A stretch of DNA of 64,000 bases from IMG/VR virus record IMGVR_UViG_3300037882_002341, positions 128,958 through 192,957 of that record. One strand, written 5' to 3'. The stretch comes from a virus. Taxonomy: Duplodnaviria > Heunggongvirae > Uroviricota > Caudoviricetes. The notes under the pieces were generated by a model. That model did no database searches. It was not told where the DNA came from and saw only the letters and a list, made by a program, of their open reading frames with translations. Shown here piece by piece: positions 35,221 through 64,000 of the stretch. Every line of letters starts with the position of its first letter. Positions within the stretch are counted from its first letter, which is position 1. The position numbers and the translations under genes were made by a program.

Positions 35221-35255
35221 GAAACTTTCCCCAGAATTTTTTATCACGTTTTTGG
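35221..35255 (-). promoter_or_regulatory. conserved ~34-nt intergenic motif, copy 2
   Basis: Plus strand GAAACTTTCCCCAGAATTTTTTATCACGTTTTTGG, near-identical to copy 1; on the minus strand it ends 4 nt upstream of the ATG of 34455..35216. Confidence 0.35.
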
Positions 35256-38244: not shown

Positions 38245-38605
38245 GTGCTGTTACTAAGCCAGAAGAATTTCTATTATGTCTAGCTATAGTAGCTGCCTGG
38301 AAGACCATACTATCGTTTAGAACTCTAGTAAATAAGGTATTTGTTGTATGCAGAACAATAAACTGAATATCCATGGAGGGTATATTCCAAGGCTGAACTA
38401 GCTTTTCGGACTCAAGAACTTCTTTTGGTGTCCAAAGAACCAAAAGATCGTGGTATGCGTCAAAGTACTCTTTAATTTTGCCTTCAGAGGCAAAACTAGC
38501 CATACTCTGTAGACAGACTTTAGAAGCTTGTTTAATAGCAAGGAGAGCAGCTTGCTCATCTGTTAATTCAGGAGAGGAGAAAGCATCTTCTGTTTGATCC
38601 GACAT
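38216..38605 (-). CDS. hypothetical protein
   Basis: 129 aa. Confidence 0.4.
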   Translation of the reverse strand: MSDQTEDAFSSPELTDEQAALLAIKQASKVCLQSMASFASEGKIKEYFDAYHDLLVLWTPKEVLESEKLVQPWNIPSMDIQFIVLHTTNTLFTRVLNDSMVFQAATIARHNRNSSGLVTAHGAPIVSGS

Positions 38606-45986: not shown

Positions 45987-46018
45987 TGGTGGACCCGGGG
46001 GGTATCGAACCCCCGTCC
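45987..46018 (-). other. orphan tRNA 3'-end-like minihelix (GGAC / T-arm / CGG-GTCC-A-CCA)
   Basis: The minus strand reads GGAC-GGGGG-TTCGATA-CCCCC-CGGGTCC-A-CCA. It has a T-arm, an acceptor 3' strand and an encoded CCA. No canonical 5' half lies upstream; only a 4-nt GGAC can pair with GTCC. Confidence 0.4.
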
Positions 46019-46426
46019 TGAGTTCTTTCTAATTATCTTACTACACGTTTATCTACTTTTAAGTTGTAGCAAACTTGGGGTGTAGAACACCTCCACCAGG
46101 ATCTTTAATGTCATATCCAAGACATACTGCATTTAAGACATACCCACACTTGTATCCATGGTAGGGGTCACCACGTGTTCCCGAAGGAACAAGTCCAATT
46201 AGGCACAGAGAGCGAGCTTAGACGAGCGATAGTCGCTCATCTTGAACACAGGGGTGTTACCACCCCAGCTTGCAGCAAACTCACTGGCGGTCATCGGAGC
46301 CACATCCTTGATGTTGGCAGATAGTTTTCCCTATCATTTTTAACGTGGCCAAGATAGGATCCACGACGTGCAAGATAAATCGAACAGAACCAGTCGATTC
46401 CAGTCGGGCCCTTTATTTCAAAGAAG

Positions 46427-47717: not shown

Positions 47718-47792
47718 TGGTGCCCTTAGTAGGATTTGAACCTACAAAAACAGCTTAGAAGGCTGTCGTTTTTCCAATTAGACTATAAGGGC
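47718..47792 (-). tRNA. tRNA-Arg (anticodon UCU), CCA encoded
   Basis: Cloverleaf: acceptor GCCCTTA/TAAGGGC 7/7, D-arm GTCT-AATTGGAA-AAAC, anticodon arm ACAGC-CTTCTAA-GCTGT, T-arm GTAGG-TTCAAAT-CCTAC, discriminator A and CCA; 75 nt. Confidence 0.8.
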
Positions 47793-47799
47793 AATAGAT

Positions 47800-49290
47800 T
47801 TAGTTAGCTAATAATCTCTCTCTAATTTCACCAAGAGTACATTCACGTACCATGATTCCATTACTATAAACAAGTTTAAGTAAACCACCAGGTTCTTCTT
47901 CAAGTGAGCATTGATCTATGACAAAGAAGTTTCCTTCATCATCCTGTTCTACACAGAGTAAACCGGTTGCGGATTTCTTGTCACCATTATCAGTAATTGG
48001 ATCTTTACTAAGATTTCTTTGTTCACCATTAACAATACCAAAGGTGGTCTTAATGGCAAATCCATGTGTATCTCTAGTTACATATTGATATGTATAACTA
48101 CCGATACCAAGAACTATATTACTAGAACAGAATCCCTTTAACATAAGCCCATGTAAAATGTCTTCTGCTCTAGTATAGTTTATGGCATCGCCATATATTA
48201 GACCAACTCTTGGATTCAGAACACGGAACCCTGCTGAATTAACCGCCCCACCAAAAGTTTCCCAGAGACACTGTATAGCCCCTTTAAAAGCGGGACTACC
48301 GGGTTCTGCACCGGAATCACCAAGGACTATTTTAACAGGATCTCCAGAATCGGGTCTAAAGACTACTTTAGCAAAACCTAATTCATTAGGTTTTCTTGCC
48401 AAAATCTCTTCTCTTAAAATATTAGCTGTACTAGTAATAACATTCCAGAAATTCCAGGTGTCGGAAACAATAGAAACAATACCTGTAGGGTTAACCTTAG
48501 TAATAATCCTACGGATAGTTTCTATTTCATTGTTTCTCTCTCCCATGCACATAACAGAATGTTCTGTTGCGGGTACACTTCCACCTATAAACTGAGTTCT
48601 TCCATAGTAGTAGTCTTCTAGATAATCTATAGCAGGAATAGTATCTGTACCAAGGAAGGAAAGCAAGTGTGCTGCGCCGGATTTTGCAGCATCCTCAATA
48701 CCACTCATGCCACGGAAACTAAAGTCATGTCCCTGAAAAGGAACAAATTCTTTAGAACCACCAGTCAAGTTTGCATAGTGATCAAAGAGTAATCTAAATT
48801 TATAGGCAGTTGTTGCACTGGTCGTCATTTTCCAGAGTTCTGCAGAAAGAGCAGTCTCTAGATAATTAACTAACCAGTAGAAATCAGAATGAGTATTATG
48901 AATAGTAAAGAGAGGAACATTAATGTTAACTCGAGAGCCTTCGGGTAATGCAGAAATAGAGATAGGTAGATAACCAAGCTTATGTAAAGCAAGGATATGA
49001 TCTACCTTAACTACTCCTTGACCAAGACTGGAATTCATTCTTCTAAGATAGCGATCTCTTATGTCCTGTGCGGGTAATGCAAAGAACTCTTTTCCCCATT
49101 TATCTATTAAGAGATCCTTTATTACACCTTGCAATCCAAAGAAAACAACTTTATCTCCCAATAGACCAGGATCAGAGTGTCTATTGGATCTAGGAGTAAA
49201 GTTTGAGTAGACGAATTGCGTTCCATCTGGATACTGATAGATATGTCCAGACTTATAGAAATCAATAGCACTTTCAGGACGAATTCTCAT
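47800..49290 (-). CDS. nadV: nicotinamide phosphoribosyltransferase (NAMPT/NadV)
   Basis: 496 aa; N-terminal [25 protein letters not shown] parallels NAMPT [33 protein letters not shown] ... [10 protein letters not shown] and [11 protein letters not shown] match NAMPT active-site segments. Confidence 0.75.
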   Translation of the reverse strand: [496 protein letters not shown]

Positions 49291-50117
49291 GAAACTATCC
49301 TTAAACGCGATTCACATAAAAAGGGTCTTGCACCAGGTAGAACATTTTTGCAAAAGATTACATTATATATTTGTAACAAATGTTCAATACCACGTGAGAA
49401 TATGCCATGACTAACATATAAATAAATAGGACCAGTTGTTATTTCTTTTAATCTTCCACCCAAGTTGATGAAAGTTCTTCCTCCATCACAAATATCATCT
49501 ACAACTAATAGAGATTCATTTCCAAGATTTTCAGAATAAACCTTGGCATCAGTAACATTACCCGTTTGGGAATCTCTCTTTTTATCTGCTTTAATAACCC
49601 TTATACCTAGGGATTTACCAACACTCTCTACTTTTTTATTTGCTCCTGCGTCAGGAGATACAAGAGTAAACTCACCGAAGTCCCTAAGTATCCTTGCTAC
49701 AGTATCATTTATCGTACTAATTCGTATATTGTTAACTAAAGCGCCAACTACATCACTATGTGGATCGAAGACACTAACCTTACTAAAACCCAATCCATTA
49801 ATAAAGTCAGCTACTACTTTAACAGATAAGCTCTCTCCCTTATTACACACTCTATCTTGTCTAGCATAGGGAAAATAAGGTACATCTAGTTGTATTTCGG
49901 GAGTAACAAAAGAAGATCTTCTTATTGCATCAACGAGTAGAGCAAGATTCCAAAGATCATTATTGCTTTCAAATTCCAGTAATATCCTAAAAAACTGCCA
50001 GTTTGGTTGGTTAAGCGTAATCTGCTTAACATCCAATAGGGTTTCCCCTGCGGGAAATCGTTCAAGCTTTATAGGTATTTCAGTAGTTCCAAAACTATTT
50101 ACATATAATCTTAACAA
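49287..50117 (-). CDS. prs: ribose-phosphate pyrophosphokinase (PRPP synthetase)
   Basis: 276 aa; DAIRRSS ... VPYFPYARQDR matches the Prs DALRRASA ... IPYFGYARQDR signature, and LLVVDDICDGGRT is the PRPP-binding loop. Confidence 0.65.
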   Translation of the reverse strand: MLRLYVNSFGTTEIPIKLERFPAGETLLDVKQITLNQPNWQFFRILLEFESNNDLWNLALLVDAIRRSSFVTPEIQLDVPYFPYARQDRVCNKGESLSVKVVADFINGLGFSKVSVFDPHSDVVGALVNNIRISTINDTVARILRDFGEFTLVSPDAGANKKVESVGKSLGIRVIKADKKRDSQTGNVTDAKVYSENLGNESLLVVDDICDGGRTFINLGGRLKEITTGPIYLYVSHGIFSRGIEHLLQIYNVIFCKNVLPGARPFLCESRLRIVS

Positions 50118-50124
50118 TTTCTAC

Positions 50125-50358
50125 CTAAACTTTCTTAGTTTTACCATCTACTGTAACATTAATAAAGATAGGCATGTTCTCTAATTTTCCATCAATACGA
50201 CAGATCATTTCTTCCCATATCGTCCACTCGATAATATTCTTTGTTATAAGTTCATTTACATTATCAAAGAGAAAAGCTCTCCACTCTCTTAGCTTATTAG
50301 CATCTTTACATCCTTTAATCTCTAACATAGTAGGAGGCTTAATCTTTTTATCTTGCAT
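50125..50358 (-). CDS. hypothetical protein
   Basis: 77 aa. Confidence 0.3.
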   Translation of the reverse strand: MQDKKIKPPTMLEIKGCKDANKLREWRAFLFDNVNELITKNIIEWTIWEEMICRIDGKLENMPIFINVTVDGKTKKV

Positions 50359-52246
50359 CAGGATTCTTTATAGAGTTTTTAGCAGGGCCATCTATTGCTG
50401 CAACAGTTTCTACAAGTACCTGCATTCCAGCAGGCGTATCCCCTAATAGGGCACGGAGGGTATTCGGCATGCCTCTAGAGATTATTACAATAGCTTTGCT
50501 GGGATCAAGAGACTGTCCTGCGGTAGAAGCTATATCGGGTAGAAGTCCTTCTCCAGTAAGCGGTCTATCTGTTCCAACAGCAGAAAGCCGTCTACTGGAT
50601 ATACCAGATTTAACAATACGCATCCAGGGAACATATCCCCAAAAGACCTTATTGGGTAATAGCCCACACTTAAAATAAGCTTCGCTTTTTCTTCTATGAT
50701 TCATAGAAGCCCAAGTGAAGCTTAAGGGATGTTCGTCACCCATAGCAATAATTTGTTTCCCAGTAGCTTCATGTTCTTTACCTATTGCTGCTTCAAGAAG
50801 CATACCTAGGGTACCTCTTTTAAATATGCTTCTATGGGATACACAAATATCCACAATCCTACCTTCTATTACGGGCATTTCATTGTTCGGAAGAACAATA
50901 ACAACTCCCTTACAACCAGAGAAACAAGTAATCTTATCACCCGTTCTCATAGGAAGGAAACTACGTAAGGAGAAGATTGTTCTAACACCAAGAACACCTG
51001 CATAATAAGCAGGTATAGTCTCAATAGTCTCTAAAATAGCTTCTTCTTTAAGTTCAGAGGCAATAAGAGAAATTCTTGTTTCTTCTTCCTCTTTAACAGA
51101 AGAATCTATTTTCTCTGAAGAGTTCTCTACTACTATATTCTTAATTCTTGTTGCAAGCAAACCAAAGGGTTTAACAAGATCTCCCTTTTGAACACTTAAA
51201 TTAACAAGAGGCTCAGGAGACCATCTTGTTATTCTAGTGACAGATTGCGCTTCCATATGGATAGCACAAGTCTCAGACATAGCAATAGTGTCTTCGAAGG
51301 TCGAGGGTCCAAGATCCATAACTGCAGTAAGAAGATTTCTAGTCTGGACTATTGATCCTTCTGCTTGAACAGGTCTAGCTTGAGGATAAGTAAGTTCACA
51401 AGAGTTCATTACAGCAGCTCTTGCTAAGCAAGCTCTGCTAGGACTTAAGTCCAAAAGAACAGTATTTCTTCTTGTGAACTCACAAAATTGGCTTATACCC
51501 TTTGTTATCTGACCTCTTTCAACACGAGCCCCATCACAAAGAGTATAAATACTATTGATAGTTTCAGATGAACTTGTTGAACAAGGATCGAGTCTAAAGA
51601 GCATTTCTTCAGGGAACTTAAGAGGGTCAATCTTTATACCATCTTTACGATGGTATAAAAGTACCATGTCTTTTGATCCTCTAATCTGTACTTCTGAATT
51701 CTGTACCTGTCTAACAAAAGGATGAGTCACTAATCTAGAAAGAAGCAAAGATTGCAATCTTTCATTATTAATATGAACTATGCCAAAGGCATTGGTCTGG
51801 AAGAAGAAGTTGGCAAGAGGAGAGTAATTATTACTATTAGTGTCCCCAGCAGGTACCATTACTCCCTTACTGCCAAACATTCCTTCGAGTACACGAATTG
51901 CTACTTTATTCTTATCCAGAAAGTGGTACTTACCATTTGAAAACGGTTCCCAAGGACTAACAAAACCAACATTTACAAAGGTAAAAAGAGTTGAACCAAC
52001 TACAAAGAAACCATCTTTATTGGGCCTAGGTAAAGTGAATTTTACAGGGCTTCTTACCCAGAATCCCTTAGCAACTCTTCCCTCAATAAATCCTTCATAA
52101 CTAATATTTTCCAAATTACCAATAGAAGAATTCTCTTGGGAAGTAGCACGCATTATCTTTGCGGATACGGTGACAAAGAGACCATAAGGTCTCACGGGTA
52201 GGACATTTTCCCCAAAGTCCCTATAATACCTGGCAGGAAGAAACAT
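50348..52246 (-). CDS. multisubunit RNA polymerase beta-subunit-like protein (C-terminal module)
   Basis: 632 aa; RTGDKITCFSGCKGVVIVLP corresponds to the universally conserved beta GDK-x3-RHGNKGV motif, and downstream LEAAIGKE matches the beta anchor region. Confidence 0.5.
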   Translation of the reverse strand: MFLPARYYRDFGENVLPVRPYGLFVTVSAKIMRATSQENSSIGNLENISYEGFIEGRVAKGFWVRSPVKFTLPRPNKDGFFVVGSTLFTFVNVGFVSPWEPFSNGKYHFLDKNKVAIRVLEGMFGSKGVMVPAGDTNSNNYSPLANFFFQTNAFGIVHINNERLQSLLLSRLVTHPFVRQVQNSEVQIRGSKDMVLLYHRKDGIKIDPLKFPEEMLFRLDPCSTSSSETINSIYTLCDGARVERGQITKGISQFCEFTRRNTVLLDLSPSRACLARAAVMNSCELTYPQARPVQAEGSIVQTRNLLTAVMDLGPSTFEDTIAMSETCAIHMEAQSVTRITRWSPEPLVNLSVQKGDLVKPFGLLATRIKNIVVENSSEKIDSSVKEEEETRISLIASELKEEAILETIETIPAYYAGVLGVRTIFSLRSFLPMRTGDKITCFSGCKGVVIVLPNNEMPVIEGRIVDICVSHRSIFKRGTLGMLLEAAIGKEHEATGKQIIAMGDEHPLSFTWASMNHRRKSEAYFKCGLLPNKVFWGYVPWMRIVKSGISSRRLSAVGTDRPLTGEGLLPDIASTAGQSLDPSKAIVIISRGMPNTLRALLGDTPAGMQVLVETVAAIDGPAKNSIKNPDAR

Positions 52247-53955
52247 TATTTTGTCTCCCAGATATATCTGAAAACAGAACCTCTATCTTCCCGATCCAAG
52301 TGAAACACGTGGCTAAAGAGACATATAGCTCTATCCAGGTCTGACCCAATAGTCTTATGGGTTAAAGCGAAACCAGGATAGTAAGTGTTAACAAGTTCAG
52401 TTAATCCTATTACATACTTTTCTTTTATCTCTCTGTTCACATCTTTATGATTTATCTCTGTCCCAAGAATACCTGACATATCCTTTGCTATTTCATCCAA
52501 GACAGAGACAAAACATCCTAATTTCCTATTAGCATTACCATTACTATCAATAGTAAGCTCTCTTAACTTACTAATGTAATACTCTTTTCTATCTTTTAGA
52601 TTTACTTCTATAAAGAGTATTACAGGTAACTCAAGCCTAAAATGGTAGACTATTCTTGATGCATCTTCTTCCTTGATACCTGCTCTAACAAGTAAATCTA
52701 TAGATTCAGATATAGTGGAATTCTTCCACTTACTGCGCCTTTCGAACATTTCCATAATATCTATTGGACTAAATGTTCTTTCCTCGGATATCTTATGCTT
52801 TGCATCAAGTGTAGCTTGTTGAATAGTTTCCGAAAATCTATTTGCCGCACTAGAGAGCCAAGGATCCTCTCCCATAATGAGCAATATTCTTCTTGCTGTT
52901 GCACCAACTATTCCAAGATAACCTTTCATAAAGAGGTTGGCAAAGTTGGTTTCCAGTATAATCTTATTACGGGTTTCTTTCTTACTAGAGATATCCTTAT
53001 TCACGATACCTCTATCGATTTTACCGGTAATCTTTTCCATTTCACGGACTGTATTTGTGGGTGAAATCCATCCACACACATCACCAGGTCCATAGGAAAA
53101 TCCATTAACTGTAAAACGATTTAAGGTATCTTGTATTATATTAGACCAATCAGGATCTTCTGGGAGATTATCATGACAAAGATACTTAGGCCATTTTGCA
53201 TGAAGCAAAGTGTGCTTAAGCAAATTGTCATTCATCTCTCTCAGAACTTCTGGTTCCTGAGGAGGCTTTACAAAAGCAACTTGATCACCATCGCAATCTG
53301 CATTTAACTGTTTAAACAAGAGAGGATGTAAAGCAATAACATTATCATCTATAGGATAAGCTCTAACAACTTCCATAGAACCAGTCCAAATTACAGGATC
53401 TCTGAAGATTATTATTAAATCTCCCTCTTTGATACCTGTATTCTTCATTGCAATAGTGCTTATTCCCACCCATTCTGGACTACGAGAAATCTGGGGGATA
53501 AGTACCAATCTACCAGAGTGTGCCATTCTGGTACCACTTATATTAGTGGCTATTACACCTCTATTGCCTATGACTCTATTCATTAGGCTTAAGTAGAAAA
53601 GCTTAACAAGTCTTTCAATTACAACTATACTAAGGTTACCTTCGTTTTGCTCGAAGTACGCAAGTAACTGATTACCTGCTACTGTTACAGGGTGAAGGAA
53701 GACCATTTCTCCCGATTTCTCAATTCTTCCATCGGGGGAAAGAGCAGGAATCATTATATGATTTATTGTTCTACCAAAAGGATCAGATACAAAAAAATTC
53801 TGAGGTAAATTGATCCGAGCTCCTCTTTTAAGGATAGCAGGATCAATTAATGTATCTTTAACATCTTTAGGTATTTGACCAAGTCTGACAGTTCTTCCTA
53901 CATCAAGAGTTGTAATATCAGAGTCTAAACTTACTTTAAGCCTAATGGCTTTCAT
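52246..53955 (-). CDS. multisubunit RNA polymerase beta'-subunit-like protein (catalytic NADFDGD module)
   Basis: 569 aa; GTRMAHSGRLVLIPQ matches beta' GKRVDYSGRSVIVVGP, and DPVIWTGSMEVVRAYPIDDNVIALHPLLFKQLNADCDGDQVAFV matches beta' NRAPTLHRLGIQAFEP ... [21 protein letters not shown], including the Mg-binding aspartates. Confidence 0.7.
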   Translation of the reverse strand: MKAIRLKVSLDSDITTLDVGRTVRLGQIPKDVKDTLIDPAILKRGARINLPQNFFVSDPFGRTINHIMIPALSPDGRIEKSGEMVFLHPVTVAGNQLLAYFEQNEGNLSIVVIERLVKLFYLSLMNRVIGNRGVIATNISGTRMAHSGRLVLIPQISRSPEWVGISTIAMKNTGIKEGDLIIIFRDPVIWTGSMEVVRAYPIDDNVIALHPLLFKQLNADCDGDQVAFVKPPQEPEVLREMNDNLLKHTLLHAKWPKYLCHDNLPEDPDWSNIIQDTLNRFTVNGFSYGPGDVCGWISPTNTVREMEKITGKIDRGIVNKDISSKKETRNKIILETNFANLFMKGYLGIVGATARRILLIMGEDPWLSSAANRFSETIQQATLDAKHKISEERTFSPIDIMEMFERRSKWKNSTISESIDLLVRAGIKEEDASRIVYHFRLELPVILFIEVNLKDRKEYYISKLRELTIDSNGNANRKLGCFVSVLDEIAKDMSGILGTEINHKDVNREIKEKYVIGLTELVNTYYPGFALTHKTIGSDLDRAICLFSHVFHLDREDRGSVFRYIWETK

Positions 53956-54331
53956 AAGGATCTTCCTCTATATTCTCTTCTTCTTTATCTTCAGTAGAAG
54001 AAAACTCTGTAGGAACAAAATCCGTATTCATAGTCAGATTAATAGGTGATCTATGTCCTGATTTAAGATTCTCAGTAAGGATCCAGCGAACACCAACTAT
54101 AGGTATTACTAGAAACCTTGCGCCTGTTAGCTTTGAAGTACCTATATCAAACTCTTTACTCGATCCACATATCACTCCACCGCTTTTACCTGATATAAGT
54201 AACTCAGCTCCTTGGCGTAAGACCTCTAGTAATTCCGAGTTCGCAGGCAATCTACAAAGAAATCCCTCAGGATTCATTAACGTGGCTTCCCATCCATTTG
54301 GGCCGCCTCTTGACATGAATCCGTTTAGCAC
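53942..54331 (-). CDS. hypothetical protein
   Basis: 129 aa; overlaps the beta'-like gene start; could be another RNAP fragment. Confidence 0.35.
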   Translation of the reverse strand: MLNGFMSRGGPNGWEATLMNPEGFLCRLPANSELLEVLRQGAELLISGKSGGVICGSSKEFDIGTSKLTGARFLVIPIVGVRWILTENLKSGHRSPINLTMNTDFVPTEFSSTEDKEEENIEEDPYESH

Positions 54332-54361
54332 TATCCCCTCCCCGGTACTTAGGAAATAGAA

Positions 54362-54799
54362 CTACTCTGCCTCACTACATAGAACACTTAGTCTACTTTC
54401 AGTATTACCAAACCATCGAGAAAGATCTTGTCTAGCTTTCTCACGATTTGTGCGGTTATTCCCTGGTAAACCCACCATGACCAAGTCATTTCTAGTTACA
54501 AAATCATTTTCACTAGAACCTGACATTATTCCAAATATAGCAGTAGAAAGAAGGTCTTTATCATAAGAACCTGTTTTATCTAGTGTTCTTATAAAGATAA
54601 CATTCTCTTCTGAAACAAATTTCAGGGGATGACTGCCAGAACTTCTTAACCATACCGTACAAGCAGGGAGAAGATGTATACCTAAAACTCTTCCTATTTC
54701 AATTTGCTCATCTTCCAATAAATTCTGAGCATCTGGAATAATGACAGTTTGGTTTTTACGTAATTCTCTTAATCTAGAGATATTAGTAACGAGGATCAT
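54362..54799 (-). CDS. hypothetical protein
   Basis: 145 aa. Confidence 0.4.
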   Translation of the reverse strand: MILVTNISRLRELRKNQTVIIPDAQNLLEDEQIEIGRVLGIHLLPACTVWLRSSGSHPLKFVSEENVIFIRTLDKTGSYDKDLLSTAIFGIMSGSSENDFVTRNDLVMVGLPGNNRTNREKARQDLSRWFGNTESRLSVLCSEAE

Positions 54800-54950
54800 T
54801 CTTCCTCTTTTTCTTGATTAGACACTTTATCTTCAACCATTGATCTAATAGATCGATTGCGTAGATCCCTATTTTTAACAGAGGTTTTTTCAGAAACTCT
54901 GCTACTTTTTGTACTACGCTTTTTGGATCCTTTTTCAGGTTTTCTGTTTT

Positions 54951-55223
54951 TCAATTACTCCCACTCTTTAGATTTGAGATAACCATTCCACAAGTTACCA
55001 TACTAAGTAAACAACCAAAACTTAGGATAAACATAGCATAGTCTTTATAAATAATAAAAGCTGTCATTAGCCCAAATGCACTAAGCATATTAAAGACAAT
55101 TACAAAGAACAAAACAGTGGCCAGTGGCATTTTCAGTAGGAATAAAACAAGCATGTCGAAGAGAGAAAATTCTCCATGTTCTAGTATTTCTTTCGCAACA
55201 TCTTCCTTTTCTTCTTCAGACAT
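54951..55223 (-). CDS. small membrane protein (two predicted TM helices)
   Basis: 90 aa; hydrophobic stretches LFLLKMPLATVLFFVIVFNMLSAFGLMTAFIIY and FILSFGCLLSMVTCGMVI. Confidence 0.4.
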   Translation of the reverse strand: MSEEEKEDVAKEILEHGEFSLFDMLVLFLLKMPLATVLFFVIVFNMLSAFGLMTAFIIYKDYAMFILSFGCLLSMVTCGMVISNLKSGSN

Positions 55224-55480
55224 TCGTTTTCCTTAACAGATTTTTGGCACAAAAAGGTTACTATGTAAGATCAGTAGGAAACTGACTAAGCTAAGTCGTT
55301 ATTAGATAACGGCTTAATGTCTATTTACTAACTTTTATAAATCTCTAAAGTTTGGGCAGGGGGAGTTAATTGCTTGTGAATTAGGGAAGGGAGGGCAAAT
55401 TAACTTTACGGGTGGGCACCCAACCCCTATTTGGAGTATTAGAAGAATCTATTAAGTATTAAGTAAGAAGGAAAAGAAGA

Positions 55481-56068
55481 TTACTTGTTTGGCAGAGAAA
55501 GCTCAAACTTTATCTCAAGAAGTTCAAGTTCAGATTTAATAACACTTCTAGTTGTATGGAGTTCAGGGAAGTCGGGGATTTTACTGAGTAGATAGTCAAG
55601 ATATTCATCGGGCTCAGCATCAAGTGCTCTTTCTCTCTTCCTACTCTCAAGATCCTTACGCTTACTAACAAGAGCAGTTATTTCCTTAATTCTGTTCCTG
55701 AGATGTTCTACTCTTCTCTTAGCCAGTCTCTTTTTAACAGTAGGATCTACTTTACGTTCTTCTTTTCTTAACTCTCGATCTCTCTTCTTATCTATAGATT
55801 TAGTCAGGGTCTTACGTAACATATTTATAAGAGCAGGATCTATCTTAGATCTAGCTCTCTTAGTATGCAGTTTACCCTCTATAAAGTTCTCCGCTTCTTT
55901 AACAGTATTACTATGGACAAGATTCCTTACCTTTTTATGCTGATCAGGTCTACTTGCTCTATATCTTGATCTCTTAGAACTAGAAGAAGACGAAGTCTTA
56001 GAAGACTTGTCTTTCTTTTTCTTAGTAATTCTAGTATCAACTTCTGTTGCATCTTCCTTGGAGTTCAA
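55481..56068 (-). CDS. highly basic Lys/Arg/Ser-rich protein (nucleic-acid-binding or internal virion protein candidate)
   Basis: 195 aa; KKKKDKSSKTSSSSSSKRSRYRASR and repeated KRxxRE/K coiled-coil segments. Confidence 0.4.
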   Translation of the reverse strand: MNSKEDATEVDTRITKKKKDKSSKTSSSSSSKRSRYRASRPDQHKKVRNLVHSNTVKEAENFIEGKLHTKRARSKIDPALINMLRKTLTKSIDKKRDRELRKEERKVDPTVKKRLAKRRVEHLRNRIKEITALVSKRKDLESRKRERALDAEPDEYLDYLLSKIPDFPELHTTRSVIKSELELLEIKFELSLPNK

Positions 56069-56370
56069 TTTATCCCCTGTTTGCTAATTTCTCTAGAGAT
56101 AAAGCAAGTATGACCATATATATCAATAAAGCTTCTCAGACCAGAAAATCTACCTCTTAATAAAGCAAGAGAAACGATTAATGGCTCATTACAGATTTTA
56201 AGTATTTCTATTATGGGTAAGTTAAGCTGTTCTAGTCTATTTATGAGTTCCTGTACTTCTGTTTCGGTTTCAGCTAATGCTGCTCTTCTTTTCTTAAGTA
56301 GCTCAGCTCGATCCCACAATTTACCTATAAGATCGGGATCTGGAGACATTTCATTTGCTGAAGTGCTCAT
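56065..56370 (-). CDS. hypothetical protein
   Basis: 101 aa, coiled-coil. Confidence 0.35.
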   Translation of the reverse strand: MSTSANEMSPDPDLIGKLWDRAELLKKRRAALAETETEVQELINRLEQLNLPIIEILKICNEPLIVSLALLRGRFSGLRSFIDIYGHTCFISREISKQGIN

Positions 56371-56375
56371 TGTCT

Positions 56376-56816
56376 TTAAAACTCCGGTAGCGGGCCTAAG
56401 AGGTCGTGTATGTCCTCAAAGGCCATACCCATGTCTGCTGCCGCAACTCTTTCCTTAATGGCTTTAAGACTACTTTCTGACAGTCCCATAGGGTTATTAT
56501 CAAGAATCTGTAGATGAGCACTTCTCATTTGACATGCTTTCAGTGCCATACCACCAAGCACTCTTCCTGCAACATTACCTTCATCTTTATTAATTAGGTA
56601 CTCTACTAGAGCATAAATAACGTTTTCTCTAGACGTTAGAGCCTTTAATAATTGTTCTGCTATGGCTAAAGCCATATTTTTGGTCATCTCCTGGTTAGTT
56701 CCAGAAAGTTGATCACTAATCATCAATCTTTCATGGTTACTTACACCAGGTAGTTGTATAGGTCTGTCTTTTTCCATTCCTAACCAAATACAGAAACAGA
56801 TTTTTGGGGATAGCAA
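56376..56816 (-). CDS. hypothetical protein
   Basis: 146 aa. Confidence 0.4.
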   Translation of the reverse strand: MLSPKICFCIWLGMEKDRPIQLPGVSNHERLMISDQLSGTNQEMTKNMALAIAEQLLKALTSRENVIYALVEYLINKDEGNVAGRVLGGMALKACQMRSAHLQILDNNPMGLSESSLKAIKERVAAADMGMAFEDIHDLLGPLPEF

Positions 56817-57385
56817 CTAGAGCAATTGGCATCTCCACATGGACCTTTTGCATTATTAAGGTCAGATAAGATTGCATTAAGGTTATCAGGTGTAAGATTA
56901 AACAATTCCGGACTAGAGCGGATTTGATCAACTAACTTTTCATATTCTCTTGTATTAGTAATTCTGAGTACCCCTAAGGCTGCATTAATTGCATTTATAG
57001 TCTCTTGACCGGCTTGTTTTGCTGAGTCATCCTTTAATAGATCTGTTATCTTTTCTAAAGTAGACTTCTTAACTCGGTTAACAATATCCGTTGTCCATGA
57101 ACTCATAATGTTATTACTAACTTCATCTATAGAATTAAGCATCCTGCCCAATTCTTTATTCCTAGTACTTGAAACAAAATCATAAATGTCAGAGATATCT
57201 TTTTCCGAAAGACATTGTTTTATACCATCAATAAGTCTTTTCTGGATTTCATTATCTTCTAATGATTTAGTTATAATCCGTCGTAGAACAGATTCATCAG
57301 GTAATCTTTGTACTGTGACACGTATACTTTCAACAGTCTCTCTTATCTCTACTATCGCATGAATCATATCATCTATTGTAGGCAC
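56780..57385 (-). CDS. hypothetical protein
   Basis: 201 aa. Confidence 0.4.
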   Translation of the reverse strand: MPTIDDMIHAIVEIRETVESIRVTVQRLPDESVLRRIITKSLEDNEIQKRLIDGIKQCLSEKDISDIYDFVSSTRNKELGRMLNSIDEVSNNIMSSWTTDIVNRVKKSTLEKITDLLKDDSAKQAGQETINAINAALGVLRITNTREYEKLVDQIRSSPELFNLTPDNLNAILSDLNNAKGPCGDANCSSCYPQKSVSVFG

Positions 57386-57608
57386 TTGTTATTCCTTGTA
57401 AAAATTTAATACTAAGAGAAATGATTATTCTCTTTATTATTCAATATTAATCTCACTAGATCTATTACTACAGCTATTAGAAATACAAATGGAAGTAAGA
57501 GTAGAAATTTCATAATTATCCTATTAGTTGTGAGCCCTACAAGTTTCTATTATCTGTTTTTAAGTGTGTTGTATCTATATTAAGTAGAGCCCACATCTAA
57601 GAGTATTA

Positions 57609-58109
57609 TTACGATACTACTTCTACATTATCCGGTAAATCAAGAAGCAAGGGTTTAACTTCCTCTTGTTTTAGACCACCAAGTCCTATACCGGGGAAGT
57701 TGACTCTAAGAGTCCATTCATTATAACGAAGAGCTATTTCTCTTAGCCTAACTACAGATTCCTTTATAAGGATAAGATCTGCTTTATTCCCATAATAATA
57801 CTTTACCTGAAAACCACCTAATATCACATTGTTCCAATTTCCCATTCTACAAATGTGATATTCATATATTGCGAGGTTTCCGTAGGTACCAAGAAAGGTT
57901 GCTATACCATCTTGTTGTTTCTTTAATATATCAAGAGCGGCTACTCCATCACAGCCTCCTACTTGAGCTCTCATGGCAAGAGCTGCGCCTTTGCCCATAA
58001 CAAGAGTTCTTCTTGTCATGTTGATTGTGCCATTGGTTGTACAAAAGATCATGAGCTTTTCTTTATCCTTAGGAGGAGTCATTAAACTCTTTTGTATAAA
58101 CCTTGGCAT
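57609..58109 (-). CDS. hypothetical protein, possibly macro-domain-like
   Basis: 166 aa; IFCTTNGTINMTRRTLVMGKGAALAMRAQVGG loosely parallels the macro-domain IVNAAN ... GGGVAGAI ... AAG core; weak. Confidence 0.25.
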   Translation of the reverse strand: MPRFIQKSLMTPPKDKEKLMIFCTTNGTINMTRRTLVMGKGAALAMRAQVGGCDGVAALDILKKQQDGIATFLGTYGNLAIYEYHICRMGNWNNVILGGFQVKYYYGNKADLILIKESVVRLREIALRYNEWTLRVNFPGIGLGGLKQEEVKPLLLDLPDNVEVVS

Positions 58110-58117
58110 TTTTAATC

Positions 58118-58564
58118 CTATCTCTGATATACAGAAGGTAACAACTTCTTTATTTCATTATCTATTCTGAGCAAGAAATCTTTAGGACCAGTTAACTTAA
58201 TAGCCGTATATGCACCTTGCATTCTTTCTTCCCACTTTAAATGTCCATTACTCCAAAAATGATCCCTTAAATACAATACTACCTTATTGTATTCATCTCC
58301 TTTTCTTAAGAAATAATCAAGGGTTATATTATCAACTAACACCTTTTCTATTTCTTCTCTTGCATCTCTTTTCTTCTGACTCTCTGCTAACATTGCAAGG
58401 GTCTTATCTTCAAAACCATTCTTCCAATCTATAGCAAACTTAGTTGCGAGGGCATGATGTTCTTCATCATCTATATATTTATCGCCTAATACAAGATCAC
58501 TTTCATTAGCACATAGTGCCACTAATCTTGTATTAATACGACGAAGTCTTATAGCCATATTCAC
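58118..58564 (-). CDS. hypothetical protein
   Basis: 148 aa. Confidence 0.4.
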   Translation of the reverse strand: MNMAIRLRRINTRLVALCANESDLVLGDKYIDDEEHHALATKFAIDWKNGFEDKTLAMLAESQKKRDAREEIEKVLVDNITLDYFLRKGDEYNKVVLYLRDHFWSNGHLKWEERMQGAYTAIKLTGPKDFLLRIDNEIKKLLPSVYQR

Positions 58565-59034
58565 CCCGTTACGATACTAACATTTCTAATAGTTCTATCT
58601 TTTGCATATTTCTTGATAAGCTTTTGTACGTATTTACGTACATCTCTCACACTAGTTCCATAATATCTTTCTTCTGGACCCGAATAAAACAATCTTCTGA
58701 TTTCATCAAGAGTTAGACCTAGCGTATTACAAGTATCAGGGCTTTTACTATAAGCTGCATCAAAAGGTAGATGGCGAAGTACGTGTCCTTTATTGAATCT
58801 TTCTCTAAACCATAGATCTACGCAAGCATGACCCGCAACACAAGCAATAGTTTTACACTTAGGTGATATATTGCTCTGTCCCGGATGATCAGCTAATAAT
58901 CTTGTGTGGCTCCTATATGTATCTCTAAGTATCTCAATGTCAAAAGCAAGCTTATCTCTTTCTACTTTTGCAAGAACTCTATCTATATTCTTTAGAAAAG
59001 ATAGAGTTGTAAACGAAAGCTTCTTTTTGGACAT
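58561..59034 (-). CDS. hypothetical protein, paralog family C
   Basis: 157 aa; C-x-T/I-x-AC-x-AG ... D-x-WF ... Y-x-G ... LF-x-GP ... KLI-K/R-KY-x-K pattern shared with 60248..60748. Confidence 0.4.
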   Translation of the reverse strand: MSKKKLSFTTLSFLKNIDRVLAKVERDKLAFDIEILRDTYRSHTRLLADHPGQSNISPKCKTIACVAGHACVDLWFRERFNKGHVLRHLPFDAAYSKSPDTCNTLGLTLDEIRRLFYSGPEERYYGTSVRDVRKYVQKLIKKYAKDRTIRNVSIVTG

Positions 59035-59042
59035 TATTCTTA

Positions 59043-59240
59043 TTATTTCCTAAAGAATGAACCAATAAAATAAAGCAAACCTATGATTCCCATTCCCTGT
59101 AAAAGGGAAATTTCTGGGCCGTTAGAGAGACCCGGAACTAACCAGTTCCAGAATAACATAAGAATTAGACCTGGTATAATAAACAAGATTACACACACAA
59201 AGATCAGAGCCAGGAGAAAACCAAGTAAGGTATATATCAT
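59043..59240 (-). CDS. small membrane protein
   Basis: 65 aa, two hydrophobic helices. Confidence 0.35.
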   Translation of the reverse strand: MIYTLLGFLLALIFVCVILFIIPGLILMLFWNWLVPGLSNGPEISLLQGMGIIGLLYFIGSFFRK

Positions 59241-59461
59241 TTCTTTAGTAACTCCTTAGCTGCTTTATAGACACCAGATCTACCTTCAGAGCGTAAAGCT
59301 GCAGTATAACCTGGGGGATTTATCTCAAATCCTTTTACTAGCTGTTTCCATTTCTCAGACAAGGATACAGCTCCACGAGGAAACGCTGAACCTCCATCAA
59401 GAGCACCAAGTGTTCTTGATATAAACTCTTTTCTTACTTCCTCCGGAAGCATTATTACCAT
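59237..59461 (-). CDS. hypothetical protein
   Basis: 74 aa. Confidence 0.3.
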   Translation of the reverse strand: MVIMLPEEVRKEFISRTLGALDGGSAFPRGAVSLSEKWKQLVKGFEINPPGYTAALRSEGRSGVYKAAKELLKK

Positions 59462-59600
59462 TGGTCAAAAGACATGTTGGTTAGAGATAAAACCAGTAGT
59501 TTCAATAGGTTTTCCCTCTTCTAGCCATTCTAGTAAACGCTGATAAGCCTTCTTATCATTGGCTTGGCCAAGCACTTCCACAAGAACAGTATGAGGATTG

Positions 59601-59810
59601 TCAAACATTCTTTTCCCTATTCTTCTTACGCGTAATAGCTGCTTTCTGACCAGGGGTTAAGACACTATTGATCTTGTCGATTCTTTCTCTAAAGATTCTT
59701 TGTGCCTCTTTCTCACCTACCTTTAGACCATGGGCAAATCCTAGAGAGAAAGCTTCCTCTGCGAACATACTCTGTCTCTCTTTTATAACCCTAAGTGTGT
59801 ACTTTTTCAT
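59601..59810 (-). CDS. hypothetical protein
   Basis: 69 aa. Confidence 0.3.
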   Translation of the reverse strand: MKKYTLRVIKERQSMFAEEAFSLGFAHGLKVGEKEAQRIFRERIDKINSVLTPGQKAAITRKKNREKNV

Positions 59811-59818
59811 AATGTCCT

Positions 59819-60244
59819 TTATCTAATAACAAATTCCATACTATGCTTAATTTCAATGATATGTATAACTCTATTTCTACTTTCATCTACTATTTGGTTA
59901 TACCAATCTGTATATAAGATTCTCTTAACACCACTTTTAATAAGAAGAGACATGCAAGCTTTGCATGGTCTGGCCATACTAATAGCGGTACTATTCTTTG
60001 TAAGTCTTACTACAAATACGGTAGAATCTTTTATATCTCTACCGCTATTGTTGAACATTGCTAATTCAGCATGAGTCTTGCGTGTTCTATTTAATGCCTG
60101 AGTGCTTGTTTTATGAGGGTCATTACAGCCTATACCTATGATTCTTCCATTTCTATAGGCTGACGCTCCTACTTTATATCGAGATCCCTCTGAGATCTGT
60201 GCTACATCTAGAGCGGCTTTTACTAGTCTATCTATGATAGCCAT
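59819..60244 (-). CDS. cytidine/deoxycytidylate deaminase-fold protein (second deaminase)
   Basis: 141 aa; zinc motifs HAELAMF and PCKACMSLL (H-A-E ... P-C-x-x-C). Confidence 0.5.
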   Translation of the reverse strand: MAIIDRLVKAALDVAQISEGSRYKVGASAYRNGRIIGIGCNDPHKTSTQALNRTRKTHAELAMFNNSGRDIKDSTVFVVRLTKNSTAISMARPCKACMSLLIKSGVKRILYTDWYNQIVDESRNRVIHIIEIKHSMEFVIR

Positions 60245-60247
60245 ATG

Positions 60248-60748
60248 CTAATTCTTAATTTTCAAACCAGACTTTGTTTTATACTTTCTAATAAGTTTTC
60301 TAGCATATGAAACAATGTCTTTTGCGGTTACATCTTCTACATTATTACGAATGTCTGGACCATTAAGAAATAGTTGTTCAGTTTCGGCTTCACTAAGACC
60401 AAAGTATCTTTCAAGATTAGCATTTCCATACATTGCTAAAATTCCTGCCCTAGATCCATTTATCTTAATGAAACCCTTTTTAGATGTTTCTAGACCATTC
60501 TTCATAAACCAAGGATCTAATCCACACCATCCAGCAGTGCAGGCCTGAGTAGCACAGGACGGTAAATCTTTCTTTTCTAATTGACTAAAGGCACTTGCCA
60601 TATCATCAAATGACTTCCATCTTGAAAACCAAGAATTAATCTCAAAGGCAAGAGGAGGTTTCTTTGATACTTCAAGCATTACCCGAAGTAAATTCTCTAA
60701 TCGCTTTACACGAGTTATTCCAGAAATCTCTTTTATCTTTGTTTTCAT
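60248..60748 (-). CDS. hypothetical protein, paralog family C
   Basis: 166 aa; paralog of 58561..59034. Confidence 0.4.
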   Translation of the reverse strand: MKTKIKEISGITRVKRLENLLRVMLEVSKKPPLAFEINSWFSRWKSFDDMASAFSQLEKKDLPSCATQACTAGWCGLDPWFMKNGLETSKKGFIKINGSRAGILAMYGNANLERYFGLSEAETEQLFLNGPDIRNNVEDVTAKDIVSYARKLIRKYKTKSGLKIKN

Positions 60749-60784
60749 TACTCTCTCCCTTAAATAAACTCTATCTTAATAAGA

Positions 60785-60861
60785 TGGTAGGCTCGGTGAG
60801 ACTCGAACTCACTGTCACCCGATTATGAGTCGGACGCTTATACCACTTAAGCTTCGAGCCC
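60785..60861 (-). tRNA. tRNA-Met (anticodon CAU; elongator-type or Ile2-type), CCA encoded
   Basis: Cloverleaf: acceptor GGGCTCG/CGAGCCT, D-arm GCTT-AAGTGGTAT-AAGC, anticodon arm TCCGA-CTCATAA-TCGGG, variable TGACA, T-arm GTGAG-TTCGAGT-CTCAC, discriminator A and CCA. The anticodon stem lacks the three G-C pairs of initiator tRNA. Confidence 0.75.
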
Positions 60862-61387
60862 CTGATTCTATTTTAGGCGGGGCCTTTTAGACTCATGCCC
60901 AGGAGTAATGATTAATCGATCACTACTCTGTTGGATAGTTCATTAAGCTATTCAACAGGCTCCGAAGTTAGACTTTTAACAGTCACACTGTAGTCTTTCT
61001 TCTTCATCGTGACCGATAAACCTATAACGGATTTCAAATCCGCCCAGATCCCGGTTAGTCTAGCTCTTTCTTAGAGATACCAGTTATCCCGGTCTGTTAT
61101 AGGTCAAGCTCTGTGTTTCATAGGCTTGCCACCATCACAGGATCATGTGTCCTGTGGCCATATTAATAGACCGGTCCCGGAATCAGATCTTTACCTTATT
61201 AGGGTTACTTCCGGCCAGTCTAACTTAGGCACCAATTGATCCTAATCGATTTTCCTCGTGGTCCTAAGCTTGGTCTTGAAACTCCTGATTAGGGGTTTGC
61301 AAATTCCCTAAGGTAAATTTCAGGAGAAGACCTTCTGTTTCGCTCTTACCAAGAGCTCATCAGTGAGGAGTACCTCAGACAGATTTA
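60862..61387. other. ORF-free, stem-rich region (candidate structured ncRNA or cis element)
   Basis: About 525 bp without any ORF of 60 aa or more. Perfect 8-bp hairpin CCACAGGA-TCATGTG-TCCTGTGG at 61131-61153, nested hairpin AGACT-TTTA-ACAGT-CAC-ACTGT-AGTCT near 60968-60994, duplicated octamer ATCCCGGT at 61048 and 61084, and long-range CCGGAA/TTCCGG and TGGCC/GGCCA pairings. Confidence 0.35.
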
Positions 61388-61651
61388 TTAGAGCGATTTC
61401 AGGAAATCCCATAAACTCTTTATTAATGATTTCCTGATAGGTTTAGCAACCTTTCTCTTTTCAATTAGATAATTAGCTAGTTTCCACATAGCATTATCAT
61501 GTAGGTCTCTACCAACTCGAGTGCCTACTACATCTATCGGTGCATTAAAGTACCACTCATACCATCTTGCATAAGCTTCTGTAAATTCAATTGCAAGCTC
61601 ATCTAACTTATTATCGGATTTCATTAACATATTTTTCAGGAAGGAATCCAA
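61388..61651 (-). CDS. hypothetical protein
   Basis: 87 aa. Confidence 0.35.
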   Translation of the reverse strand: MDSFLKNMLMKSDNKLDELAIEFTEAYARWYEWYFNAPIDVVGTRVGRDLHDNAMWKLANYLIEKRKVAKPIRKSLIKSLWDFLKSL

Positions 61652-61994
61652 CTACGGCATTTTTAACTTTAGCAAAAGTAGATTTCTGGAGCTTAATATA
61701 GCTCTCTAGGAATAATGCTAGGTCTTCAACAAGTATCAATTTGCAGTGCAAGTTGCATTCAGAAATACATCTTGCATTTTCAATGGCGACACCAAGAGCA
61801 TCATCACAACAGTAGTGGAAAATTAGCCACTGTTTACTTTTAGGACAATAACAATATTGAAGGCTACTAGAAGAATTCCCATGTTTATAAACTACTTGGT
61901 GACTTAGTTTTATAGGTATATCATTAAAGCACCTTTCTACTTCTTTGATAAAGGTATCAATGATAGCAACTGCTTTACCAAGTTCATCTTCCAT
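61611..61994 (-). CDS. hypothetical Cys-rich protein
   Basis: 127 aa; LQYCYCPKSKQWLIFHYCCDD and CISECNLHC. Confidence 0.4.
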   Translation of the reverse strand: MEDELGKAVAIIDTFIKEVERCFNDIPIKLSHQVVYKHGNSSSSLQYCYCPKSKQWLIFHYCCDDALGVAIENARCISECNLHCKLILVEDLALFLESYIKLQKSTFAKVKNAVVGFLPEKYVNEIR

Positions 61995-62072
61995 TATCTA
62001 TTCTTTTCCGAGTTAGTTATAAGATAAAGTCATAATAGATAGAAAGAGGAAGGAAGATTATGTCGAGAAAAT

Positions 62073-62255
62073 CTATTCTCTTTCTACCTTTACTCTAATT
62101 TCTTTAGGTTCCATAGAGCAGGTTATTGCTATAGCATAAGTAGCTATAATTGCAGCTATATAACCTATACAGATGATCATCTTACTTATTCTAATCTTTG
62201 GATTGGGATAAACAACATCTGTACAACCACAAGTATCTTCTGAGCAATTACTCAT
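62073..62255 (-). CDS. small membrane protein
   Basis: 60 aa; hydrophobic ICIGYIAAIIATYAIAITC. Confidence 0.3.
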   Translation of the reverse strand: MSNCSEDTCGCTDVVYPNPKIRISKMIICIGYIAAIIATYAIAITCSMEPKEIRVKVERE

Positions 62256-62256
62256 A

Positions 62257-62706
62257 TTAGAGCTCCGAACGAACTTTCATTAAGATCTTGCCTAGATGAT
62301 TAAGACCATTCCTATTATGCTCTCTGCATATACATATGCCCCAAAAGAGGTCATGCCACCAAGTTTCTTCTACTAGTTCTTCTTCTCCAGTAGCTTTTAA
62401 AGATTCTCTAAGTACTGGATTAGTAAACTTTGCTCTAACTATATCTTCCATGAATCTAAGTTTAACTCTATCCCAGTCTTTTCTTAAAGTTACCTTTTGT
62501 CCTGCTTCTTTAGCATTCTTAGGCTTAAGAAATCTTATTTCCTCTTGCTCATTTAGATCAAGGGTCTTCATTGCCTGATAAGCAGCTTCTGAACTTAACC
62601 AATTTCTTCCGTCGAACTCAAAGTTAGATTCAAAGAAGTTGCTCAGGAATCCGTAATTGCTTCCACTTCTAAAGTATATTATCATTTTAGGTCCACATGT
62701 GTCCAC
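62257..62706 (-). CDS. NADAR-domain protein (YbiA-like; NAD/ADP-ribose-associated)
   Basis: 149 aa; IYFRSGSNYGFLSNFFESNFEFDGRNWLSSEAAYQAMK parallels E. coli YbiA INFYSTSDDYGDFSNFAAWPIKVDGKTWPTSEHYFQAQK, and ETWWHDLFWG parallels YbiA DAYWGDG. Confidence 0.65.
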   Translation of the reverse strand: MDTCGPKMIIYFRSGSNYGFLSNFFESNFEFDGRNWLSSEAAYQAMKTLDLNEQEEIRFLKPKNAKEAGQKVTLRKDWDRVKLRFMEDIVRAKFTNPVLRESLKATGEEELVEETWWHDLFWGICICREHNRNGLNHLGKILMKVRSEL

Positions 62707-63130
62707 GAAGTCTCATTAGTAACTGAAGCTGTTCAGTATCCCAATTCTCAAGTTCCTGATCTTCATCAAAACACTCCATAACTTCTCTTATTTCATAGAA
62801 GTCATAAGGATCATAATTCTTACGCCACTGCCACCAATCATAGAGATCAAGTAAGATTGCTAAGTCGTGGCGATGATTAGCGAGACAGGGTTCATTCATT
62901 AGTAAGAAAAGACAATTTTTATAAATTCTAGGGTCTTCTCCTTCACACCACCAAGAAACGGGTTTCTCTTCCTCAATAAACTCTTCCAAGAGAGCAAAAC
63001 AAGCATATGTTAATCTATGATCAATATCATAGTACTGAGGCTTGAGCTTAGTATTAACAAGATGAAACTTCCATCTTGATAAGAATCTATAAGCAAACCA
63101 ATACCAGATAGCAACAATCTTGTTTTTCAT
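62687..63130 (-). CDS. hypothetical protein
   Basis: 147 aa, Trp/Tyr-rich. Confidence 0.4.
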   Translation of the reverse strand: MKNKIVAIWYWFAYRFLSRWKFHLVNTKLKPQYYDIDHRLTYACFALLEEFIEEEKPVSWWCEGEDPRIYKNCLFLLMNEPCLANHRHDLAILLDLYDWWQWRKNYDPYDFYEIREVMECFDEDQELENWDTEQLQLLMRLRGHMWT

Positions 63131-63333
63131 GATTCAGTTTTCCAGCCTATTAACTTTGCTACTTCATCAACATCCATTGGTACAGAGATCGTATAAGAAT
63201 CCAGTGCGCTATAAGCTAATCGTATATCGGTCCAACCTGTTGCTTCTTTTCTAATGCTTATGGAAAGAATATCATCCATATTTACATAAGCATAGGCATG
63301 TCTTTCACTACCAATCCGGGTAAACCCACTCAT
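63127..63333 (-). CDS. hypothetical protein
   Basis: 68 aa. Confidence 0.3.
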   Translation of the reverse strand: MSGFTRIGSERHAYAYVNMDDILSISIRKEATGWTDIRLAYSALDSYTISVPMDVDEVAKLIGWKTES

Positions 63334-63537
63334 ACAGTGCTCTTTTCATCTACCCATTGCTGAGCAAGAGATACATCAAGATTAAATCCTTGTCCAACTC
63401 TCAAGAGTCCATTAGGCCAACAATGAAGATCTATTATTATAGAGTGAAGAGCTTCTACTGTACTTTGTGTATCTCTCTTGCTCACTTAGTCTCCTTTGCT
63501 CTTACAGTGTGGTAGGTGGTGAACTAGCTTTCGAGAT

Positions 63538-63786
63538 TCACGATTGCTCTATGTTTTCCTCAGTCAGCGTTGGGCCCTTCTGCAGTTCTCGTATGATCTC
63601 TTGACGCCGGATATCGGGAAGAGCGACGAGAGCCTTATAGGCGGAGATCACCGATGCGATGGCGAGCCGCTCGGAGGTCGAGAGCGGGCGGTTGGCATAG
63701 CGGAGTGTGTGCTCTAGTTCATCGAGCCGCTCGCTAGGCACCGGCCAGACCTTCCCGCCGAAGCGTCGATAGAGCGGATTACACAC
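63538..63786 (-). CDS. hypothetical protein encoded mostly in the GC-rich terminal segment
   Basis: 82 aa; Arg/Ala/Leu-rich with high-GC codons; its C-terminus runs into AT-rich DNA. Confidence 0.3.
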   Translation of the reverse strand: MCNPLYRRFGGKVWPVPSERLDELEHTLRYANRPLSTSERLAIASVISAYKALVALPDIRRQEIIRELQKGPTLTEENIEQS

Positions 63787-63991
63787 CGGGCGCCTCCTCT
63801 CCCGCGACGAGGGCGGAGATGTCGTCGTCGGTTAGGACACTAGCGTGATAGAGCCTCACCGCCCGCGCCCCCTCCTCCCGCGCCGCGAGAATGGCGGCGG
63901 CCAGGATGCGGCGGAGGCAGGCGTCGCAGTCCCGGCGTTGGAAGGTTGGTCCACGGCAGACACAGTTGAAGTGATCGAGCGTCTCCGCCAC
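63779..63991 (-). CDS. hypothetical protein in the GC-rich segment (may be partial at the window edge)
   Basis: 70 aa; Ala/Arg-rich; CVCRGP ... DCDAC cysteines. Confidence 0.3.
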   Translation of the reverse strand: MAETLDHFNCVCRGPTFQRRDCDACLRRILAAAILAAREEGARAVRLYHASVLTDDDISALVAGEEAPGV

Positions 63992-64000
63992 GTCGTCGGC

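Follow-up and report, generated by a model that had tools for sequence, protein, structure and literature searches.

The window analysed here, a stretch of 64,000 nucleotides, is AT-rich along almost its entire length and ends in a short block of GC-rich DNA. Within this block lies an 82-aa gene on the minus strand (63786..63538), with a GTG start, a TGA stop (63540..63538), a GC content of 0.59 and a GC3 of 0.68. Its start codon is preceded, with a spacing of 6 nt, by GGAGAGGAGG, part of a Shine-Dalgarno site read from the sequence on the same strand (63793..63803, GGGAGAGGAGG), with the core GGAGG at 63797..63793. The gene overlaps by 8 nt (GTGTGTAA) with a putative ORF on the minus strand (63779..64000, TAA at 63781..63779), designated ORF-X in the following, of which 73 codons are visible before it runs off the window end. 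On the other side, a spacer of 52 nt (63486-63537, GC 0.44) separates the 82-aa gene from the first AT-rich resident past the junction, a 51-aa gene on the minus strand (63330..63485) with a GTG start, a GC content of 0.39 and a GC3 of 0.22, which has no PHROG or Pfam match and is an ORFan. The Shine-Dalgarno sequence of this gene, AAGGAG (63496..63491), is found inside the spacer, 5 nt before the GTG. Both genes beside the junction are intact, share the same orientation and are preceded by strong Shine-Dalgarno sites.

GC content in 200-bp windows amounts to 0.33-0.43 over 63000-63599 and to 0.64-0.69 over 63600-63999. A two-segment maximum-likelihood fit places the changepoint of raw GC at 63558 (0.375 up to this point, 0.655 from there on), and the compositional junction as a whole, a feature without strand, spans 63486..63560. 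The final 450 bp have a GC content of 0.647, corresponding to z=7.1 relative to all other 450-bp windows (mean 0.397, sd 0.035, maximum 0.509), and 1-kb bins over the remaining 63 kb stay between 0.336 and 0.475 throughout. In tetranucleotide distance to the remaining sequence, the GC-rich end reaches z=10.9, and its GC-normalised dinucleotide signature is surpassed in just 4 of 421 windows. At the level of codon positions, the resident ORFs (n=43) have a GC3 of 0.316±0.060 and do not exceed 0.436, and GC1/2/3 values are 0.66/0.44/0.68 for the 82-aa ORF and 0.77/0.51/0.82 for the putative ORF-X; the 82-aa gene alone exceeds the GC3 of the resident set by about 6 sd. An abrupt switch to GC-rich DNA with GC3-dominated codons had been proposed in a preliminary description of this sequence, which illustrated it with a string at 63894-63927 and suggested sliding-window GC and tetranucleotide profiles as a check; both profiles show the switch, and the codon positions agree with the description.

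Judged by GC3, the switch occurs either at the stop codon of the 82-aa gene (63538) or inside the spacer. GC3 is 0.70 over the first 70 codons of this gene, 0.58 over the last 12 and 0.22 in the next gene. The dip of raw GC in the final 7 codons is due to a tail rich in E, N, I and Q, and this C-terminal tail (KGPTLTEENIEQS) is like the tail of a homolog, P0003 (KGPGIAREEIEKGVKG). Since GC3 remains donor-like up to the stop and the tail resembles that of P0003, the 82-aa gene can be considered intact, ending at the boundary rather than forming a fusion ORF with resident DNA. The earlier statement that the ORF at 63538-63786 reads straight across the boundary gives a misleading picture in this respect, as no more than about 7 of its codons lie past the changepoint of raw GC. 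The visible boundary coincides with a gene boundary, and the GC-rich block runs past 64000.

We found no intrinsic terminator or sigma-70-like promoter in 63300-64000, which includes the visible part of the block, no tRNA-like match in 63000-64000 (Rfam, E<=1) and, within the window, no convincing repeat, inverted repeat or target-site duplication at the boundary. A 12-mer common to 63520-63531 and 38394-38405 was considered as an intergenic motif and rejected, because the second copy is located inside a coding sequence and such matches arise by chance.

The frame of ORF-X contains a CxC-x9-CxxC motif and is composed of 19% Ala and 11% Arg. The preliminary description had mentioned two Ala/Arg-rich ORFs at the window end, which is accurate for ORF-X but not for the 82-aa ORF on the minus strand, with its 7% Ala. 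Opposite ORF-X, an antisense frame on the plus strand is open from a GTG at 63845 to 64000, and a codon model trained on a phage of 63% GC rates the two about equally, assigning 5.4 bits to this antisense frame and 3.6 bits to the minus frame of ORF-X, so that either strand may be the coding one. Neither of the two frames has a homolog by phmmer, tblastn, Pfam or PHROG; ORF-X reaches no significant Pfam, PHROG or PADLOC family, the best being phrog_26046 with E=0.13. All 188 phmmer relatives obtained for this region align to the 82-aa ORF and none to ORF-X, and one hit that seemed to span both ORFs (P0038) was dismissed, as BLASTP gives no support for it. No form of the ORF-X product is present in the protein collection, though the proteins of its neighbours are. 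The idea that the contig ends at 64000 was also considered and is without support, the collection holding no truncated product of ORF-X or of the antisense frame.

The 82-aa protein and its phage relatives

As judged from its sequence, the 82-aa gene is a member of PHROG 3472, a widespread family of small phage genes without assigned function. Its product matches phrog_3472 with E=4.6e-6 (residues 11-70 against profile positions 14-77 of 84), and a phmmer search of 1.84 billion representatives returned 188 relatives at E<=1e-3, 12 of them at E<=1e-10. Identities to these relatives range from 35 to 57%, the closest reaching 57%. In the alignments, the 82-aa protein keeps the family residues W14, P15, P17, A44, AASV..AY (A49-Y50), R61 and RELxKGP, and the ORF is of full length relative to the family, whose members have 70-115 aa. 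An AlphaFold model (70 sequences, pLDDT 87.7) predicts a beta-hairpin followed by three helices. Fold matches to this model in BFVD are only uncharacterized actinophage proteins, namely those of Gordonia phage Paries and Mycobacterium phage EleanorGeorge (TM 0.66-0.71, probability 1.00). No match to the protein was obtained in Pfam, PADLOC or PDB sequences, and the model has no fold analogue in the PDB.

Named relatives include MrGordo gp61, Avani gp92, Baka gp80, NormanBulbieJr gp84 and the homologs of EleanorGeorge and of Gordonia phage Paries; the text of the NormanBulbieJr screen, whose results table is an image, does not discuss the gp84 homolog. Carriers of the family are mycobacteriophages, Gordonia phages and proteobacterial prophages, in which the gene resides in early or replication-recombination regions. 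In MrGordo it is surrounded by genes for a primase, a helicase and endonuclease VII; in locus L002 it immediately follows a family-A DNA polymerase (PolA), in L006 it is part of arrays of small overlapping early genes and in L008 it adjoins an integrase, while the sole distant relative from the metagenome scan (L001) is situated downstream of RecT and a YqaJ-like exonuclease. A narrower alignment additionally recovered family loci in a Pseudorhodoferax chromosome and in an Ignavibacteriaceae MAG. Based on this genomic company, i.e., the RecT/exonuclease, PolA and primase/helicase neighbours of its relatives, our best guess is that the 82-aa protein serves as a small accessory factor early in infection, acting in DNA replication/recombination or on a host protein.

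Searches by tblastn with P0002 as query detected the family gene in 36 mycobacteriophages, including MrGordo, Avani and Baka, which belong to different genera. The copies of MrGordo (cluster A) and Avani (cluster F) share 99.7% DNA identity and have differing flanks, which indicates that the PHROG 3472 gene is a mosaic module moving between phages.

The DNA stretch shared by MrGordo, Avani and Baka (2597-3213 in L003, 2597-3213 in L004 and 2506-3213 in L005, respectively) is 90-99.7% identical across the three genera and comprises the family gene as well as portions of the gene upstream of it, with different flanks beyond. This upstream gene is annotated as an HNH endonuclease in MrGordo (gp62) and as hypothetical in the counterparts of Avani and Baka.

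The GC content of the family gene and that of its surroundings differ by no more than about 4 points in each of ten comparison loci, for which locus GC ranges from 0.48 to 0.66, gene GC from 0.46 to 0.68 and GC3 from 0.42 to 0.87. Homologs in loci of 59-66% GC have a GC3 of 0.66-0.73, and the 82-aa gene (0.68) equals them. It is the only member found that is at odds with its own genome, with a GC content of 0.59 in a background of 0.40.

The HNH annotation upstream of the MrGordo homolog, the sharp boundary of the block and the zinc-knuckle-like CxC-x9-CxxC of ORF-X could all be read as signs of an element that inserted itself, be it a transposon, a homing-endonuclease cassette or a phage-parasitic or satellite element, of which the window would show the edge. 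ORF-X is, however, unlike MrGordo gp62 or its counterparts, and the same holds for the genes upstream of homologs in all eight loci compared. It can be placed in no Pfam, PHROG or PADLOC family, the boundary has no inverted repeat or target-site duplication, and there is no transposase or integrase in view. We consider insertion by a self-mobile element very unlikely.

The resident AT-rich genome

All ORFs of at least 150 aa with family assignments are encoded on the minus strand. Across 1-64000, nearly all sizeable ORFs have this orientation, and all 1-kb bins show a negative GC skew. Among the resident genes we find a DnaE-type polymerase (26607-30167, minus strand) that was recognised by a family match and shows only about 30% identity to anything, and an adjacent, split pair of ORFs on the minus strand (50348-53955) that resemble RNA polymerase beta (632 aa) and beta-prime (569 aa) subunits. 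The matches of this pair are weak, to Rpb2 domain 6 and Rpb1 domain 2, respectively, and a tblastn search of 50,697 records of cultured phages with the 632-aa ORF gave no match; from its sequence the pair looks like a very divergent phage RNA polymerase. Genes for NAMPT (47800-49290) and PRPP synthetase (49287-50117) form a NAD-salvage pair on the minus strand, with a tRNA-Arg(TCT) immediately downstream (47718-47792, minus), and a NADAR gene (62257-62706, minus) and a possible macro/phosphatase-like ORF (57609-58109, minus) are located near the NAD-salvage region. Other phage genes in the window encode a SNF2/ResIII helicase, RecA, RNA ligase, dCMP deaminase, MoxR/VWA proteins and several glycosyltransferases. 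The MoxR-type AAA+ ATPase and the VWA-domain protein (13002-14534 and 41840-43411, both minus) are 27 kb apart; the genes of these partners are usually adjacent in bacteria.

Two tRNAs and one tmRNA are present in the window. The tmRNA (45987-46411, minus) was missed by ARAGORN and is a full-length match to the Rfam model RF00023 (113 bits, E=2e-43) with a CCA end. Two ORFs of 157 and 166 aa (58561-59034 and 60248-60748, both minus) look like paralogs, sharing the motifs C..C.AG..C.D.WF and YFG.s..e...LF..GP; the larger one matches phrog_889, to which no function is assigned, and a tRNA-Met adjoins it at 60785-60861. Direct repeats of 32 nt (GAAACTTCCACCAGAATTTTTTATACCGTTTT) occur at 19041-19072, 35221-35252 and 50348-50379 with 72-88% identity, at or near gene ends, and this repeat family may represent a regulatory or terminator-like motif of the phage. 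An ORF with a primase-like zinc-finger motif (CINPDHEDKTPSM) runs off the window start (1-200, minus), so that a gene is cut at this end as well.

No relatives of the AT-rich phage were recovered from IMG/VR, using the 147-aa ORF, the RNA polymerase beta-prime-like ORF and NADAR as queries, or from cultured phages (INPHARED). It looks like a novel, large genome of lytic style, its own RNA polymerase, DnaE-type polymerase, RecA, NAD salvage and single gene direction being what we take to be typical of lytic large phages.

This gene content bears on another reading put forward in the preliminary description, namely that the junction marks the end of a prophage against a high-GC host. The AT-rich phage would then be integrated in a high-GC chromosome, and the GC-rich DNA would belong to the host or to a neighbouring prophage. 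A GC contrast of this size has been seen for some jumbo phages relative to their hosts (PMC6892783), and the contig, with its 193 kb, exceeds the visible AT-rich part. Yet the gene met first beyond the junction, in the GC-rich DNA, is a member of a phage family and not chromosomal, and no integrase, recombinase or excisionase was found within 10 kb of the junction (ORFs at 53942-63485). Att-like duplications or tRNA fragments, which had been suggested as a further check, are absent from the junction (Rfam E<=1, repeat search), and the split RNA polymerase, together with the other genes and the unidirectional arrangement just described, speaks for a lytic style. The far-side gene of phage type and the lack of integration signatures leave hardly any room for a prophage-host junction.

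Origin of the GC-rich block

In our view the GC-rich end is best explained as DNA that was acquired recently from a high-GC phage and has not been ameliorated, a reading to which we assign a probability of roughly 60%. The preliminary description had listed recently acquired DNA among several foreign origins, and it is this one that fits best with a gene of a phage family, a donor-like GC3 and a boundary at a gene end, while the prophage-host origin is not supported, on the points given above. In composition, the block is unlike the genome next to it and agrees with a different gene pool, with a GC3 of 0.68-0.82 against 0.316±0.06. Illegitimate recombination of the AT-rich phage with a phage or prophage from a GC-rich bacterium would have introduced the block, and the window end would show its transcription-downstream edge. 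The donor may have had a composition of about 60-65% GC, retained by the 82-aa gene, and the absence of amelioration suggests that the transfer was evolutionarily recent. Given that the block and the resident genes point the same way without an intervening terminator, the 82-aa gene is probably co-transcribed with the resident phage genes downstream.

Searches for a donor gave no match, neither by blastn with the GC-rich DNA as query against phage and plasmid sequences, the BLAST search of this part that the preliminary description had suggested, nor by tblastn of the 82-aa protein against phages, nor in single-protein scans of GTDB genomes and IMG/VR. The block is visible over only about 450 bp, with one boundary inside the window. 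On database level, the 82-aa protein, the 51-aa ORF and nine AT-rich proteins are singletons on one 192,957-bp JGI metagenome contig, of which the window is a slice, and the JGI annotation has gene calls on either side of the junction on this one contig.

The sequence being a metagenome contig, an assembler could also have joined the AT-rich phage to an unrelated high-GC fragment, of phage or bacterial origin, from the same sample. In favour of such a chimera, the switch is abrupt and the foreign part shows no amelioration, there is no relative or donor that corroborates the arrangement, and ORF-X is missing among the gene calls of the contig. Against this stands the architecture of the junction. 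A random break in two genomes that are each at least about 90% coding would rarely spare both flanking genes, and a random join would rarely hit the 52-nt spacer between a stop codon and a Shine-Dalgarno site, keep the strand and meet a gene of phage type; by rough estimate, the joint probability of this architecture would be well under 1%. Moreover, the junction contains no tRNA, IS, conserved RNA or within-window repeat that could have seeded a mis-join. We therefore regard an assembly chimera as unlikely, albeit as an explanation to be taken seriously, and favour acquisition from a high-GC phage in what follows.

Comparison with known systems and implications

Morons or mosaic modules with atypical composition have reportedly been described from lambdoid phages and mycobacteriophages, in the work of Hendrix/Juhala in 2000 and of Pedulla et al. 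in 2003. Surviving junctions at gene boundaries are a classic signature of phage mosaicism in both groups. The block at the window end has in common with such modules its foreign composition, a boundary at a gene end and the orientation of its neighbours, as well as a gene family that is exchanged between unrelated phages (clusters A and F). It differs in its unusually large contrast (GC3 0.68-0.82 versus 0.32) and in its recipient, which is not a temperate siphophage but a large AT-rich phage encoding an RNA polymerase of its own. In contrast to the classical definition of a moron, the visible part of the block has no promoter or terminator of its own. Compared to the PHROG 3472 members of mycobacteriophages and Paries, the 82-aa protein is of the same length class and has the same motifs and predicted fold, but its identity to them is 35-57% and its composition disagrees with its own genome. 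As a feature, the junction is most probably ordinary phage mosaicism and a new instance of a known phenomenon.

Pseudomonas phage MIJ3 is a jumbo phage with a GC content far from that of its host (PMC6892783). Being a large, AT-rich phage that carries transcription and replication genes of its own, the phage analysed here is comparable to MIJ3 and phiKZ-type jumbo phages, but the comparison is an analogy only and implies no membership. Phages of the phiKZ type have about 37% GC in a host of 66%. By analogy, a phage of 38% GC could plausibly meet phage DNA of 60-70% GC if its host were itself GC-rich.

A more far-reaching interpretation, which we judge to be improbable, is that the block reflects gene flow from high-GC temperate phages into a deeply novel, AT-rich large phage, or else the edge of a mobile element parasitising the large phage. 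If gene flow from temperate phages were true, the host would have a GC content at least 25 points above that of the phage, and a phage of jumbo type would recruit small early genes from resident prophages, possibly as factors of counter-defence or host takeover.

Should the contig be a chimera, the junction would matter only as a quality flag on its 193 kb; either way it is of a known kind and would hold no surprise for a phage genomicist. If the junction is real, it represents a clean, unameliorated transfer across compositions into a large AT-rich phage, and it would draw attention to PHROG 3472 as an early gene family that phages trade often. An acquired block would also suggest that the AT-rich phage replicates in, or meets, cells that contain high-GC phage DNA. 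A real junction would thereby offer a rare clue to the host of an otherwise unplaceable metagenomic phage, as this phage must then occur in the same cells as phages whose bacterial host has about 60-70% GC.
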